Part shown: piece after piece, positions 25,731-63,858 of the stretch
How the letters are laid out: each line of letters starts with the position of its first letter
How positions within the stretch are numbered: position 1 is the first letter of the stretch
Assembly: GCA_964542965.1 (NCBI GenBank)
Contig: CAZIVH010000002.1
Location: forward strand, 487-64,486
DNA: 64,000 nt
DNA from: an uncultured Candidatus Peribacteria bacterium
Lineage (GTDB): Bacteria; Patescibacteriota; Gracilibacteria; Absconditabacterales; Absconditicoccaceae
Reading direction: 5' to 3'
Translations under genes and position numbers: made by a program
Notes under the pieces: model-generated
Databases searched by the model: none
What the model was told of the DNA's origin: nothing
Seen by the model: the letters and a program-made list of their open reading frames with translations, nothing else

Positions 25731-29522
<3,792 letters not shown>

Positions 29523-58260: not shown

Positions 58261-59741
58261 TGTATATATCTCGGCTCCAGTCACTCGTACGGACTCAACA
58301 CTTTCAAAACGTCTCCTTTCTGGATGCCCCTATTCTCGAACTCATCAAGCAAACCTTTACTACTCATCTGTTTCCGGAACCGTGCTTCAGCTTCATCATT
58401 TCCTCGCGGCAACTGCCGAACGAGTTTAGCGATTTCCTCATTATAGATTTCCCGGACATTGACATACTCTGCGTCGGTAGCAGTCAAATATTCATGCTCG
58501 ATCAAGAATGGTTTTTCTATTTCGCTGATATTGGCTATAGAATCTTTTCTCTTTTTTATCTCTCTATGCTGAATATGCTCAAAATGATAAACTTCCTGGG
58601 TATCTGTCTTTTTGATCATTTCTACTACATGATTCAATCGTTCGTCGACACCGAAATGAGTCGCTGCCGAAATCGTGAAGGTATGCTGGGTCAAAAGTTT
58701 TTTCGTAATCTTGGTTCAGATCTTGTTCTTTTTGAAAAATCATAGAATCTCCTTCCAAAGTTGTTCCTGATACTCCTTCAAAATATCCTGATCATTGACC
58801 AGATCATATTTATTGATGAGGAACATCATCCTTTTCTCGATAACAAGATTCCCTTCTTCGTAGGCATAGAACGTAATGAAGCCATCATCCTCCCTAATCT
58901 GCACTTCGAGATATTTATCTTCGCCTCAGAGTTTGGTATTAGCATATGCGACGATTTCCTCTAACAATTCTGGTATCTCGGTGATTCCTTGATCATATCT
59001 GGAGATATCGCACATCAAACAAAAGACCCTCGCTTTGAGCACATGACGGAGGAACGCATTGCCAAGTCCTTTCCCTTCCGCAGCTCCCTTGATCAATCCA
59101 GGGATATCAATGACATTGAAATTCGTCTTCTGTACAGTCACAGAACCTAAGTTAGGAACCAATGTCGTGAACGGATAATCAGCGACTTTTGCTTTGGTGT
59201 TTGAGATGGTATTGATCAACGACGTCTTGCCCACTGAGGGCGTTCAGATCAACGCGACATCAGCCAAAAGCTGGAGTTCAAGCACGATCTCTTTTTTATT
59301 TCCCGGTTCGCCGAGCAAGCAAAATGACGGATATTGATGGACCGCATCCTTGAAATGCATATTCCCCACTCCTCATTCACCGCCATACACCGCTGTTCGC
59401 TGTTCTCCATCCTGAGTGAACGCATGAAGGATCTCATCGGTCTGTTTGTCTCTTATGATAGTTCATACAGGGACAATCAATGTCAGGTTCTCAGCATTGG
59501 CACCATATTGATCCTTTGATTTTCCCGGTTCTCCCGGCAAGGCTTTGAAGTTGGATTTGTACCTATATGCTTGTAGAGTGTTTTCGTCTTTGTCCGCTTG
59601 GAAAACAACTGATCCTCCATCTCCTCCATTTCCTCCCGAAGGACCTCAAAAAGGCACGCCTGCCTCTCTTCTTCAGGTGACTGTTCCATCTCCTCATTTT
59701 CCCGATTGGACGGTAATCGTGATTTCATCATAAAAACGCAT
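58254..59741 (-). CDS. obg: GTPase Obg/CgtA (495 aa)
   Basis: [47 protein letters not shown] (Gly-rich Obg fold). ...LELQLLADVALI-[TGA 59244-59246]-TPSVGKTSLI (Walker A). Every line from 58201 to 59701 checked. Track ORF 59483-59731 is an off-frame artefact. Confidence 0.9.
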
Positions 59742-59891: not shown

Positions 59892-61385
59892 TTACAACAC
59901 ATTAGCTGCTATCTCTGCAAGCTCACTACGTTCGCCCTTCTCAAGTTTGATATGAGCGAAAAGCGGTTGTCCTACCATTTTGAACACCACATACGATAAT
60001 CCATTGGATCGTGAATCCAAATACGGAGTATCGATCTGTCCCGCATCACCGCAAAGGATAATCTTGGTATTTTCCCCTGCACGAGTCACGATAGTCTTCA
60101 TTTCATGAGGAGTCAGATTCTGTGTCTCATCGATAATGAACACGATATTGTTCAAACTTCGTCCACGGATTGCTGCCAAAGGCTGAATCTTGAGTTTTCC
60201 TTCATCTATCAAGATGGAGACAAAATCATCCTTGATTTCCGGTTCTGCTTTCTGAGGACTCTTTTTCTTCTTTTGTTTCGCTTCAGGTTTCACATCTACA
60301 GGATTTCCCTTTTTACCTCTGTGCAAACTCTTGATCAGATCAAGATTGTCATACAACCCCTGCATAAACGGAGCTACTTTTTCTTTCAGATCGCCAGGCA
60401 ACGCACCGATATCCTTATTACTCAAGGGTACGGTTGCTGCTGCAAGGACTAACATATCGCATTTACCCTGCTTAAGTAGATGAAGACCTACCGCTATCGC
60501 GAGCAACGTCTTACCGGTGCCAGCTATGCCAAACAGGGAAATAAGTTTGATATCGTCCTGTAGCATAAGGTTGATGGCGAAAGTCTGCTCCGCATTTCTG
60601 GGAGTAATCCCAGATATTGGCTGCATTTTTTCCACACGATACATTTTTTTCATTGTGGGATTCAATCGCGCCAATACACTACGATTGTCAGTACTCAGGA
60701 TAAAGCACATGTTGGGTTGCTTATCTTCCGGAAGGAGCTTCAGATGCTCCTCTGTCAATTCTACGCCTTTCTCGATATTTTCCTTGTACAGATCGGAAAT
60801 CAATCCAGAAAGATTTTCATTTTTAACTTCTTTTTTTCCGGTGTAGAGTTCATCAACATTAGCTACCTTGTCATTTTCGTAATCTTGAGCTTCCATATTA
60901 ATCCCTTCCGCTTTCAATCGGAGGTTTATGTCCTTACTCACTAAGATTACCTTCTTGTCCTGATTTTTGTCTATCACGTGACAGACGGCACTGAGAATGC
61001 GATGATCGCCTTTTTCCTCGTGAAAAATGTCTTTTACTCGACTGTGGAGTTTTCTCGGAAAGGTTTTGATATGGATCTTACCCATATTTTCACCCAACGA
61101 AACTCCACCATTGAACAATGCAGACACCTCTTTTTTCTCTTTGCCTTTACCGCCTTTCCCGGTATTGACTTCCTGCGTGATACGGACCTTGCGAAACTCA
61201 TCAAGTTGACGATGAAATTCACGGACATTGAATCCTCTTGCATCGCTGTGCTTCTTGTAGGTATCAAGTTCCTCCAATACCGTCATCGGAATGACTACAT
61301 CATGTTCCTGGAACTTATGGATACATGTATGATCATGCATAATCACGTTCGTATCCAGAACGAATACTTTTTTTTCTTTTGCCAT
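59892..61385 (-). CDS. PIN-domain plus PhoH-like ATPase (YlaK-type), 497 aa
   Basis: Intact ORF: N-terminal VFVLDTNVIMHD (PIN); ...LFGIAGTGKTLLAIAVG (Walker A); ...VFIIDETQNLTPHE (Walker B). No TGA codon. Confidence 0.8.
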   Translation of the reverse strand: MAKEKKVFVLDTNVIMHDHTCIHKFQEHDVVIPMTVLEELDTYKKHSDARGFNVREFHRQLDEFRKVRITQEVNTGKGGKGKEKKEVSALFNGGVSLGENMGKIHIKTFPRKLHSRVKDIFHEEKGDHRILSAVCHVIDKNQDKKVILVSKDINLRLKAEGINMEAQDYENDKVANVDELYTGKKEVKNENLSGLISDLYKENIEKGVELTEEHLKLLPEDKQPNMCFILSTDNRSVLARLNPTMKKMYRVEKMQPISGITPRNAEQTFAINLMLQDDIKLISLFGIAGTGKTLLAIAVGLHLLKQGKCDMLVLAAATVPLSNKDIGALPGDLKEKVAPFMQGLYDNLDLIKSLHRGKKGNPVDVKPEAKQKKKKSPQKAEPEIKDDFVSILIDEGKLKIQPLAAIRGRSLNNIVFIIDETQNLTPHEMKTIVTRAGENTKIILCGDAGQIDTPYLDSRSNGLSYVVFKMVGQPLFAHIKLEKGERSELAEIAANVL

Positions 61386-61483
61386 ATGCGTTAGATTTTG
61401 TTTTTAATTACCATATATATTACCCACAAAAAAACAATATCATTTTCCGTTAAATAAACTTTTTGGGAAATATAAAAATACAG

Positions 61484-61511
61484 TTGATTTTTTACCTATT
61501 ATCACTATAAG
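61484..61511 (+). promoter_or_regulatory. Putative promoter for the tRNA-like leader / GIY-YIG / tRNA-Lys unit
   Basis: TTGATT (61484-61489), 16 nt, TATAAG (61506-61511). Confidence 0.35.
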
Positions 61512-61590
61512 AAGCCCCGCAACAACATGGGTGAGTAGCTCAATTGGTTAGAGCAGTCCCGCTAAAGCGGGAAAGGTTCGGGGCTTTTAT
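61512..61590 (+). pseudogene. Partial tRNA-Lys duplicate (acceptor 5' strand, D-arm, altered anticodon arm, 5' T-stem), enclosed by AAGCCCCG/CGGGGCTT and followed by TTTTAT
   Basis: 61523-61556 is identical over 34 nt to 61841-61874. AAGGTTCGGGG is also shared (61573-61583 vs 61890-61900). The anticodon arm is replaced by TCCCGC-taaa-GCGGGA. No T-loop or 3' acceptor strand. Confidence 0.6.
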
Positions 61591-61605
61591 ACATAAATAA
61601 TCCAT

Positions 61606-61869
61606 ATGTATTATGTATATATCCTGAAATGAGATAAGTACTATGTGTGAATTACGAACAATATACAAAGAAGGTTCGATGAACATAAAAGAGGTAATAG
61701 TTATTTTACAAAAAGGATAGGAAAAAATATTATATTATTATGATGGTTTCAATATTCTACGAAAAAAGAAGCTTTGGAGTTAGAAAGTAAAATTAAAAAA
61801 TCTGGTCATATCGAAAGATGGACCAAAGAAAAAACATTTACAACATGGGTGAGTAGCTCAATTGGTTAG
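61606..61869 (+). CDS. GIY-YIG nuclease superfamily protein (UPF0213/YhbQ-like, 87 aa)
   Basis: MYYVYILK-G-DKYYV-G-ITNNIQRRFDEHKRGNSYFTKRIGKNIILL-G-WFQYSTKKEALELESKIKKSGHIERWTKEK...; GIY...YVG/YIG and R..EH motifs. The last 23 nt overlap the 5' end of tRNA-Lys. Confidence 0.7.
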
Positions 61870-61920
61870 AGCAGGTCCCTCTTAAGGACAAGGTTCGGGG
61901 TTCGATTCCCCGCTCGCCTA
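61847..61920 (+). tRNA. tRNA-Lys (anticodon CUU), no encoded CCA
   Basis: Hand-folded cloverleaf: acceptor GGGTGAG/CTCGCCT (two G.U pairs), D-arm GCTC-AATTGGTTA-GAGC, anticodon arm GGTCC-CTCTTAA-GGACA, variable loop AGGTT, T-arm CGGGG-TTCGATT-CCCCG, discriminator A. Confidence 0.8.
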
Positions 61921-62031
61921 AAGGAAATTAAGATCTGATGGAAGTCGGATTTTTTTTGTTTGAAAACTTTCTCGCTTTGATTATAGTAACCTCATAAATT
62001 TACAATTCACAATTCATAATTTTTTAATTGT

Positions 62032-63858
62032 ATGCATATTATGTTACAATTCGATTCTCTCAAAACATTGGACGCATCCATCACACTCCTGCAAAAAAGA
62101 ATCAAAGATCCGCATACGCTTTTCCTCGTTGGAGGATGCGTCAGAGATCTCCTTTTGGGAATCGAAAAAAAGCCTACTGACATCGACTTCACCATGGCCG
62201 GTGATCCAAAAAAGTTAGATAAACTCATCGACAAAAAAGGCATGTCCTACTTCATGACCGAAAAATTCGGCACGATGACACTCATCAAAAAAATTGAAAA
62301 ATTGAAAAATTGAAAGATGGAAACATTGAATCCTGAAGCAATTAAGTATGAATTGACGCCACTGAGGACAGAAGGTAAATATGATGATTTCAGACACCCG
62401 GGAGAGATTGAACGAAGCAATGATCTCTTACTAGATTCCCATAGAAGAGACTTCACGATCAACTGCATCTATTATGCGAATACGAAACGGACACAAGAGC
62501 ATGAAAAACATATCGCTAAAAAATACATCCACCATTATTCTGACGACGACACGTTCGTCCAGAGATTGAACGACCAGGGATATATTCTCATCAAGGATTT
62601 GAATCTCTTGATACTCCAAGACCATAAACATATCTCCAAACTCTTCAAAGGGTGATGTTTCCATGACGATCATCTCGTAGAGATGTTGAAGTCCGTAACG
62701 ATTTTTTCTACAAAAAAGAATTGAAAATTAAAAATTGAAAATTGAAAATTACTACGTATCGTAGTTGATCCGCACAAAGGGATACAAGATAGTATCTACA
62801 AAAGATTGAGAGCAGTCGGCGATCCGGACAAAAGATTCAATGAAGATGCGTTGAGAATTGTGAGAGCGATTAGGTTTGTGAATGTACTTAATGAAAAATT
62901 GAAAAATTGAAAGATGGGAAAATTGAAAGATGGGAAAAATAGTGATAAAGTAACGTTGTTTGATTTTGAGAAAGCGACATGGAATAGCGTCAAAAAGAAT
63001 CATGAACTCGTAAAAAACGTAGCGAAAGAGAGAATCAAGGAAGAGATCATGAAAGCGTTTACGGTAGGCAATCCGTTCGGTTTCATCGCCTTGCTTGACG
63101 AAGCAAAACTGCTCGAACATTTATTCCCTGCCTTATACGCGACCAAAAATATCGAGCAACCCATCAGATATCATCCGTTTGATGTGTATGTTCACACGCT
63201 CCTCTGCTTGTTTGAATTGCAGAAAATAAATAAAGATCCTCTTGTGAGATTAGCGATGCTCTATCACGATGTCGGCAAGGTGGATCAATTCGGCGCGTAC
63301 GCTGACGGACTGAGCAAAGAAGAGATCAGAGAGATTCTCGCTGGGCCGCTGAATCACAGAAGAAGCTCACCGGAATACGCGAAGAAAGATTTCAAATCGC
63401 TCGGATTCTCCAGCAAAGAGATTACGGAAATAGCTCGATATATCGCCCATCACCACACGCCGGAAGAAATGATTTTCGCCAAAGAGGAAAATAGAGAGAA
63501 AAAAGTGAGATCTTTCCTTAGCGAAGCGGGCTACGAAAGAGCTATGAATGTCTTGGATATTGCGATGGCTGATAGATTGGGACAATATAACCCACTACAG
63601 AATAGTTCTGACATTTCCGATGTAGATGAAATCAGGAAAATCCTAAAAAAACTTCAGAAGCAAGAAGGACAATTCACGATGAAAAACCTCGCTATCGACG
63701 GAGCATATATCATGAAAGAATTAAAACTCCCTGCATGACCGACTATCGGAAAATTACTAAAAAAGACCCTTGAGTGGGTCATGACGGATATCAAAGCAAG
63801 GAATGAGAAGAAGCAGATATTAGGATTTTTGAAGATACAAATGAGACACCTGAAATAA
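62032..63858 (+). CDS. cca: CCA-adding tRNA nucleotidyltransferase with HD domain (608 aa) carrying three in-frame heptad-repeat insertions
   Basis: ...LFLVGGCVRDLLLG...PTDIDF..., ...RRDFTINCIYY..., ...LRAVGDPDKRFNEDALRIVRAIRF..., ...YHPFDVYVHTL...LYHDVGK... Track ORFs 62032-62313, 62317-62655 and 62914-63738 share frame 1. Gaps read by hand: TGA only. TAA 63856. Confidence 0.8.
62287..62330 (+). repeat. ATTGAAA-flavour repeat inside cca, site 1 (encodes KIEKLKN-G-KMETL)
   Basis: aaaaaaattgaaaaattgaaaaattgaaagatggaaacattgaa; shares ATTGAAAGATG with the spacers at 21071-21083 and 33080-33090. Confidence 0.55.
62712..62752 (+). repeat. ATTGAAA-flavour repeat inside cca, site 2 (encodes KKN-G-KLKIEN-G-KL)
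   Basis: aaaaaagaattgaaaattaaaaattgaaaattgaaaattac. Confidence 0.5.
62890..62940 (+). repeat. ATTGAAA-flavour repeat inside cca, site 3 (encodes NEKLKN-G-KMGKLKDGKN)
   Basis: aatgaaaaattgaaaaattgaaagatgggaaaattgaaagatgggaaaaat. Confidence 0.55.

Follow-up and report, generated by a model that had tools for sequence, protein, structure and literature searches.

A small GIY-YIG nuclease gene and a hairpin-bearing partial tRNA at the tRNA-Lys(CUU) locus of an Absconditabacterales genome: a probable Ssn-like cassette

The tRNA-Lys(CUU) locus and its empty counterpart

The DNA analysed here, a stretch of 64,000 nucleotides (nt) that we call the window, comes from an uncultured bacterium of the Absconditabacterales (genome G000). 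Towards its right end lies a small gene for a GIY-YIG nuclease, lodged between a disabled, partial copy of tRNA-Lys(CUU) and the intact tRNA-Lys(CUU) gene (Table 1). Both tRNA copies begin with an exact direct repeat, found with a repeat finder and read from the sequence, the copies of which are 318 nt apart; an earlier, sequence-only reading of the region had given the same spacing, and had made the repeat 34 nt long where it is 35 nt. A second repeat of 11 nt (AAGGTTCGGGG, at 61573-61583 and 61890-61900) covers the variable loop and the 5' T-stem, at which the upstream copy stops. Between the two repeats, the upstream copy contains a 16-nt GC hairpin, TCCCGC-TAAA-GCGGGA, in place of the 15-nt anticodon stem-loop GTCCCTCTTAAGGAC. 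The open reading frame (ORF) of the nuclease follows, and its final 23 nt, TAG stop codon included, are tRNA sequence. The second repeat, the replaced anticodon arm and this overlap had all been recognised at first reading. Since its 5' part is duplicated, the tRNA remains intact: it was placed at 61846-61921 by ARAGORN and at 61847-61920 by Rfam (64.7 bits), and we favour the Rfam register because one relative encodes the CCA end. A scan of positions 61300-62100 against Rfam gave no family besides tRNA.

To compare this arrangement with that of relatives, tRNA-Lys(CUU) was located in 30 genomes of the genus, all of them metagenome assemblies, and its flanks were annotated. In the closest relative, G008 (median identity of 93% over seven neighbouring proteins), the locus comprises the same phoH-like gene, tRNA and gene for the CCA-adding enzyme, and the intergenic DNA aligns nearly base for base with that of G000, leaving a gap of exactly 318 nt; at the empty site, ...AAGAAGCCCCGCA is joined directly to ACGACATGGGTGAG.... 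The empty tRNA-Lys(CUU) alleles that the sequence-only reading had suggested looking for among relatives therefore exist, and in G008 the site is exact. The cassette also occupies tRNA-Lys(CUU) in G007, G042, G023 and G018, and about 16 further loci that could be assessed lack it, a patchy occupancy (5 of about 21 in the genus).

The promoter-like element ahead of the disabled copy (TTGATT-16 nt-TATAAG) is conserved in further members of the genus. It is predicted from its sequence and position to be the tRNA promoter, and in G000 it now faces the disabled copy, the real tRNA lying 318 nt further on. The terminator-like hairpin downstream of the intact tRNA is one that G007 and the empty site of G008 have conserved; with two G-C pairs only, it is not listed by the terminator scan, and its role as a terminator is a prediction. 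The 318-nt block encodes the GIY-YIG ORF alone and no integrase, and what is repeated of the tRNA is its 5' part, not its 3' end. An integrase-type island or prophage targeting the tRNA was thus rejected, as the locus has neither a tyrosine or serine integrase nor an att repeat made of the tRNA 3' end.

Table 1. Features of the tRNA-Lys(CUU) region, in window coordinates
Feature	Position	Strand	Basis or remark
Promoter-like TTGATT-16 nt-TATAAG	61484..61511	+	Native tRNA-Lys(CUU) promoter region (predicted); same distance to the intact tRNA at the G008/G010 empty site
318-nt segment absent from the closest relative	61522..61839		G000/G008 pairwise alignment; equally writable as 61557-61874
35-nt repeat, left copy: 7-nt leader, then the initial 28 nt of tRNA-Lys (5' acceptor strand, D-arm and positions 26-27)	61522..61556	+	Repeat finder
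GC hairpin TCCCGC-TAAA-GCGGGA, Ssn-related-motif-like, at the anticodon stem-loop position	61557..61572		Conserved; predicted to fold
11-nt copy of tRNA positions 43-53 (variable loop, 5' T-stem), end of the disabled copy	61573..61583	+	Repeat finder
AT-rich spacer with TTTATAC-type motif ahead of the ATG	61584..61605	+	Similar motifs in other cassettes
Gene for the 87-aa single-domain GIY-YIG nuclease, code 25, three UGA=Gly, TAG stop in the tRNA D-loop	61606..61869	+	Pfam, AlphaFold, dN/dS
Right copy of the 35-nt repeat, within the intact tRNA and its leader	61840..61874	+	Repeat finder
Intact tRNA-Lys(CUU), the sole one in the assembly	61847..61920	+	ARAGORN, Rfam
Hairpin ATCTGA-TGGAAG-TCGGAT with T8 after it, terminator-like, native to the tRNA locus	61933..61957	+	Read from the sequence

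The nuclease, its hairpin and the Ssn family

The ORF has three in-frame TGA codons, and its GIY-YIG motifs (YYVYIL...YYVGIT) can be read only if TGA encodes glycine, as in genetic code 25. In this code the translation, 87 amino acids (aa) long, begins MYYVYILKGDKYYVGIT and matches Pfam PF01541 (E 1.2e-11), which bears out the initial description of the gene; code 4 (TGA as tryptophan) was rejected, since with it the YIG motif loses its glycine. The assembly (1.10 Mb, 38% GC) contains a tRNA(UCA), and the database proteins nearest to the ORF carry Absconditabacteria/SR1 labels. Many of the database relatives (P0001, P0003-P0006 and others) show a tryptophan at positions where UGA stands for glycine, including the YIG glycine, and were evidently predicted with code 4 rather than code 25. 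For annotation, this means that such ORFs are mistranslated (W for G) under code 4, while partial tRNAs are open to miscalling.

The GIY-YIG domain spans residues 1-78 of the 87. The tail is encoded by tRNA sequence, and its end (residues 84-87) is disordered. Eight residues (Y3, Y5, Y13, R22, R23, E26, H27 and E60) are invariant in 19 relatives, and the AlphaFold model (pLDDT 88) has a GIY-YIG fold, with UPF0213, Slx1 and the N-terminal domain of UvrC as best matches. With its motifs, conserved arginine, metal-binding glutamate and alpha/beta fold, the protein belongs to the GIY-YIG nuclease superfamily, and as a single domain of less than about 150 aa it is of the size that defines the Ssn family. 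An NCBIfam search gave no informative family; the model for group I intron endonucleases, TIGR01453, reached 21 bits for a cut-off of 56. Among solved structures, UPF0213 proteins (BH0048, EF2693) and the nuclease domain of Slx1 came out best, with weak scores nevertheless (E 1.5e-4; Foldseek E about 0.03). Unlike the situation found here, no association with hairpins or tRNA is described for either, and Slx1 acts with Slx4 on branched DNA.

The hairpin of the disabled tRNA copy is the second component of the cassette. The sequence GCAG-TCCCGC-loop-GCGGGA-AAGG is unchanged in eight copies from the five cassette-bearing genomes, with TAAA, TTCA or TTTA as the loop. Stem and flanks are thus invariant despite a synonymous divergence of at least 0.76; among the same genomes, the spacer between hairpin and ATG has diverged, as have the outer flanks. 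On these comparisons, no other non-coding part of the cassette is as well conserved, and the hairpin is not debris. It is predicted to fold as DNA on both strands. Some of the cassette-bearing genomes have two or three hairpin-tRNA copies, the additional ones lying between the gene and the intact tRNA (G023, G018) or 3' of the tRNA (G023, G042), and six genomes that lack the gene (G009, G010, G012, G014, G017 and G020) have solo hairpin-bearing tRNA-Lys fragments beside the tRNA. The motif ahead of the ATG varies from one cassette to the next (TTTATAC, TTTATGTAT, TTTATATAC), and could serve as a promoter -10 element or as a translation start region.

A small GIY-YIG enzyme paired with a GC hairpin recalls the Ssn family, the first site-specific nucleases reported to cut single-stranded DNA alone (Chenal et al., Nat Commun 2025, PMC11893778). 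SsnA of Neisseria meningitidis is a single-domain GIY-YIG protein of 94 aa, which binds and cuts single-stranded DNA only, beside a hairpin named NTS (CGTCATTCCCGCGMAVGCGGGAATCYRG), and which modulates transformation; its homologues across phyla have related hairpins, the Ssn-related motifs (SRM), at their flanks, and the paper has no word on tRNA (PMC11893778). As in Ssn systems, the protein of our cassettes is a single GIY-YIG domain of some 80-95 aa, the gene adjoins a GC hairpin, nuclease clade and hairpin type are paired, and in some cassettes hairpins are found on both sides of the gene, as in NTS-ssnA-NTS. The hairpin of the window shares with the published NTS the core TCCCGC...GCGGGA and the 3' GGGAA. 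The differences concern its surroundings: here it is set in a partial tRNA gene, exactly at the former anticodon arm; the 5' flank CGTCAT of the NTS is swapped for the tRNA D-stem sequence GAGCAG; the gene is tied to a tRNA and co-oriented with it; and this genome has no repeat family of hundreds of copies.

The genus also contains a sister clade of GIY-YIG genes that is not linked to tRNAs. These genes are flanked by CGTCATTCCCGCGAAAGCGGGAATCCAK, which has either no mismatch to the NTS consensus or a single one, at the final position. Their products, paralogues of the 87-aa protein, have 38-45% identity to it by BLASTP (E 1e-7 to 1e-10), and 57-75% identity to proteins of Proteobacteria, Bacteroidota, Planctomycetota, Ignavibacteria and many candidate phyla. 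Among 80 loci of this canonical clade across phyla, an SRM match was found at 51 and on both sides at 20, and a tRNA lies within 700 nt at only one. To judge from sequence comparison, the canonical Ssn family thus behaves in the genus as published, and the tRNA-docked proteins form a divergent branch with another harbour. No canonical Ssn-clade gene was found in the G000 assembly; the relatives G007, G008, G016 and G017 have one. The G000 assembly does contain repeats of the canonical NTS type outside the window, CGTCATTCCCGCGAAGGCGGGAATCCAG and a near copy (contig C28:5929-5956 and contig C45, about 279-306, both on the minus strand), adjoined by ATTCC..GGAAT hairpins.

Another known comparison, drawn in the Ssn paper itself, is with REP/BIME sequences and their RAYT enzymes and with IS200/IS605 elements (PMC11893778). 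There too, short GC-rich hairpins accompany a small gene and also exist as solo, non-autonomous copies. However, the enzyme here is a GIY-YIG hydrolase and not an HUH/Y1 transposase, which implies no strand transfer by itself, and the hairpins are in register with tRNA arms.

Cassettes at other tRNAs and their age

A search of this genome for further GIY-YIG genes beside tRNA fragments, also proposed by the sequence-only reading, yielded three small paralogues in addition to UvrC. One lies between tRNA-Ser and tRNA-Met, with a partial tRNA-Met in which an internal stretch is swapped for CCCCGA-CGTT-TCGGGG. Another precedes tRNA-Leu(GAG), amid several scrambled tRNA-Leu pieces that contain hairpins, and the third adjoins the end of a contig, with a hairpin-bearing fragment of tRNA-Lys(UUU) after it.

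Two tRNA loci of this genome have further peculiarities. On contig C65 (1590-2300), scrambled pieces of tRNA-Leu(GAG) stand on both sides of it; the order of the acceptor, variable-arm, D-arm and 3'-end pieces is disturbed, a different GC hairpin splits each of them, and a 3'-end piece forms a tandem repeat. On contig C12 (25827-25947), upstream of the tRNA-Lys(UUU) at 26107-26181, a hairpin-bearing fragment of tRNA-Lys(UUU), GGTAGAGCAA-CCCTGC-TAAA-GCAGGG-GTGGTCCC, occurs in two solo copies with no adjoining GIY-YIG gene. The same tRNA-Lys(UUU) fragment follows the GIY-YIG gene at the start of contig C26, so that C12 and C26 may be neighbours.

On a broader scale, we sampled 67 small GIY-YIG ORFs, nearly all from the genus, and located tRNAs with ARAGORN. 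For 43 of them a tRNA lies no more than 150 nt away, and in every one of these cases ORF and tRNA are co-oriented. Their docking sites belong to no fewer than 17 tRNA species, with the ORF upstream or downstream of the tRNA. No p-value is given for this association, since related genomes are not independent; for scale, a genome with some 40 tRNA genes in 1.1 Mb would have about 1% of its random sites that near. In a maximum-likelihood tree, the ORFs group into tRNA-specific clades, well supported for Lys-CUU, Arg-UCG, His, Tyr and two groups of Lys-UUU, and a few clades cover two tRNAs (Gly-GCC with Lys-UUU, Glu with Val). The hairpin type is clade-specific, and most hairpins are flanked by ...GAGCR and RAGGT..., which indicates that they occupy the exact position of the anticodon arm. 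The layout is the same at one tRNA-Met locus, L017, in a standard-code member of another family of the class. The survey of tRNA-docked clades covered the genus and L017, and the scan across phyla the canonical clade alone.

How old are these cassettes? Within the Lys-CUU clade, the ratio of non-synonymous to synonymous substitutions (dN/dS) is 0.07-0.19. Between G000 and G007, the proportion of synonymous differences (pS) is 0.48 for the GIY-YIG gene, and 0.39-0.72 for most well-conserved host genes nearby. The identities of the GIY-YIG proteins (86, 73, 70 and 62%) are likewise close to the genome baselines (82, 66, 60 and 62%). A test for horizontal transfer, in which GIY-YIG identity and synonymous divergence were compared with those of host genes, gave no excess of similarity between G000 and G007, so that a recent transfer between the two is not supported. 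Purifying selection acts on both gene and hairpin, and the divergence of the gene keeps pace with that of its host. The host-like pS and the low dN/dS together indicate that the cassette has been at this locus, under selection, since before the species split. The orthologue of G007 (L023, G007:C2, about 59056-59313) has a TAA at codon 9 where G000 has a UGA glycine codon, and is probably dead. In a code-25 genome, a single transition suffices to convert the glycine codon UGA to the stop codon TAA.

As for the empty site of G008, G008 may have lost the cassette or G000 may have gained it. With the gene a long-time resident and no recent transfer visible, the simplest reading would be that the cassette was deleted cleanly between the 35-nt repeats. 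However, the repeat is perfect in G000, including a leader A at -5 at which G000 differs from both G008 and G010; leader variants at the locus are ACAACATG and ACGACATG. Moreover, the outer boundary of the repeat varies, being at -7 in G000, -2 in G007 and about +1 in G042. The varying boundary and the perfect repeat would fit ongoing gene conversion or re-formation of the junction.

Explanations considered, and the neighbouring genes

The question is then what kind of entity occupies the locus. We think it probable that the region is a hairpin-plus-nuclease cassette docked in a tRNA transcription unit, that is, a long-lived selfish or semi-domesticated module of Ssn type, and not a regulatory leader. 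The proposal made at first reading, of a tiny GIY-YIG element inserted in tRNA-Lys with a replacement 5' portion, was essentially right, given the 318-nt difference and the recurrence at many tRNAs. Relatives do have empty sites, and the upstream tRNA copy is not a decayed duplicate unrelated to the ORF.

That the region is a tRNA-docked, Ssn-like cassette is far better supported than are the molecular steps that can be proposed for it. By analogy with SsnA and its NTS, the nuclease would recognise its own hairpin in single-stranded DNA and nick a few nucleotides 5' of it, in the D-arm sequence derived from the tRNA. The tRNA-derived segments could then act as homology arms for host recombination or repair, and recombination or repair synthesis against a tRNA gene would copy the cassette in. 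Conversely, recombination between the direct repeats would delete it cleanly; such a process could give the empty site of G008 as well as the solo hairpin-bearing tRNA fragments seen elsewhere. Expression of the nuclease gene may be driven by the tRNA promoter, and kept low by RNase P, whose cut at the 5' end of the tRNA would strip the stop codon from the message.

Several points weigh against this interpretation. Host-like divergence and tRNA-specific clades document no movement on recent timescales, and the difference between G000 and G008 could be a simple deletion between the 35-nt repeats. G008 is about 83% complete and its repeats may have collapsed in assembly; yet no Lys-clade GIY-YIG gene was found anywhere in G008. 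The locus gave no match to the published SRM pattern, HGTCWYN(0-2)YYVSBRHN(0-5)WNVSBRGN(0-2)RNCYNB (PMC11893778), because AGTC runs straight into the stem and the W-Y spacer after GTC is missing; beside the sister clade of the genus, this pattern does match. Finally, GIY-YIG enzymes form no covalent intermediate, so that insertion has to be left, by conjecture, to host recombination or repair.

A wider and tentative proposal, which we regard as possible but would not bet on, is that these cassettes form a distinct class of mobile DNA without transposase or integrase. A programmable, hairpin-specific single-stranded DNA nuclease would nick a DNA-level mimic of a tRNA (a pseudo-tRNA whose anticodon arm is the recognition hairpin), the arms would direct copying into the cognate tRNA gene, the duplication of part of the tRNA would spare the host tRNA, and a swap of arms alone would switch targets. 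In the published literature that we searched, nothing was found on docking at tRNAs or on pseudo-tRNAs with a hairpin for an anticodon arm. The locus reveals a branch of this kind of enzyme whose hairpin is inside a disabled tRNA copy and whose gene resides within tRNA transcription units, with many tRNA-specific lineages; what it adds is a sister genome with an exact empty site, a host that uses code 25, the coexistence of canonical and docked branches within one genus, and estimates of selection. If the pairing of nuclease and hairpin is true, the cassettes offer a natural series of small enzymes with varied hairpin specificities, of interest as single-stranded DNA tools; they would account for the many unusual pieces of tRNA and GC palindromes that lie close to tRNA genes in genomes of the candidate phyla radiation, and provide a testable model of how a bare nuclease persists or spreads with tRNA genes as homology arms.

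Alternatively, the nuclease gene may be a resident, vertically inherited host gene, a domesticated and immobile Ssn that restricts or processes incoming single-stranded DNA, for example, and that G008 has deleted. Agreement of the GIY-YIG tree with genome relatedness in the Lys(CTT) clade, the host-like pS and strong purifying selection all speak in its favour, as does the modulation of transformation by SsnA in Neisseria (PMC11893778). We nonetheless consider it improbable, in view of the patchy occupancy of tRNA-Lys(CUU) and the nonsense codon of the G007 copy. New tRNAs, of at least 17 species, have been colonised repeatedly, since the tRNA fragments in any one cassette come from the tRNA at which it is docked; derivatives in tandem or solo form are common; and a host function leaves the exchange of a tRNA arm for a hairpin unexplained.

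The GIY-YIG domain, the presence or absence of the cassette at a conserved gene and the homology on both sides of it also evoke a classical free-standing homing endonuclease gene, whose product would cut the double-stranded, cassette-free tRNA-Lys, repair then copying the cassette. A precedent is SegB of phages T4/T6, which acts on the tRNA region of phage genomes that lack its gene and cuts the double-stranded DNA there (PMC2330249). As here, a GIY-YIG nuclease gene lies among or beside tRNA genes and is present or absent in different relatives. However, Seg-type enzymes have a catalytic and a DNA-binding domain, and the protein of the window has no second domain: it is a catalytic domain of about 78 aa alone, and its match to the group I intron endonuclease model, which might be counted in favour of homing, is weak and far below the cut-off. 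SegB is reportedly more than twice as long and has a DNA-binding part. We know of no hairpin, partial tRNA duplication or restored tRNA at segB. In addition, the would-be target, the intact tRNA, survives beside the gene, the conserved internal hairpin has no role in homing, and host-tracking divergence with a low dN/dS is unlike a cycle of invasion and decay. The nearest characterised relatives, the Ssn enzymes, cut single-stranded DNA beside hairpins and do not cut double-stranded DNA (PMC11893778). The homing model, to which the sequence-only reading had appealed, is thus probably wrong, and we give it rather little credence.

The tRNA-like leader or attenuator that had been offered as the other possibility, in which the partial tRNA and an enclosing helix would tune transcription into the GIY-YIG gene and tRNA-Lys, has very little chance of being correct. 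The helix itself is present in the predicted RNA fold (AAGCCCCG, 61512-61519, pairs with CGGGGCTT, 61579-61586; z -3.8), and the unit does stand between the native promoter and the tRNA. Its interpretation as a terminator did not hold: the 5' arm AAGCCCCG is pre-existing flank, native to the locus at the empty site of G008 and G010; the run has four T only, two of them inside the stem; the scan calls no terminator there; and the pairing is not conserved in the cassettes of G007 and G042. Furthermore, the entire unit is missing from the sister genome G008, and no Rfam match other than tRNA was obtained. As for a decayed tandem tRNA duplicate that happens to lie beside an unrelated ORF, tandem duplication does yield partial tRNA copies, but we dismiss this idea on the invariance, across five genomes, of hairpin and flanks next to a spacer that has diverged, on an architecture common to many tRNAs and always co-oriented (43/43), and on the near absence of tRNAs from canonical Ssn loci across phyla (1/80).

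The genes on either side of the tRNA-docked cassette show some variation of their own. The tRNA unit between the divergent phoH-like and cca genes occurs in both orientations (loci L021-L043), one type being represented by G000, G008 and G044 and the other by G007, G042, G043 and G041; the cassette is present in some and absent from other genomes of each type. The PhoH-like gene of the window (59892-61385, minus strand) is 96% identical to that of G008 and 54% to that of G007, for neighbours that are 80-95% identical in G007, which suggests a replacement or a paralogue in one lineage. The gene for the CCA-adding enzyme (62032-63858, plus strand) has 85% amino acid identity to that of G008 and a pS of 0.54, for 91-96% in its neighbours. 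It contains an in-frame KLKNGK/ENGK peptide at residues about 92, 229-236 and 291, and AAATTGAAAAATTGAAA has three copies in the genome, every one of them on the contig of this gene.

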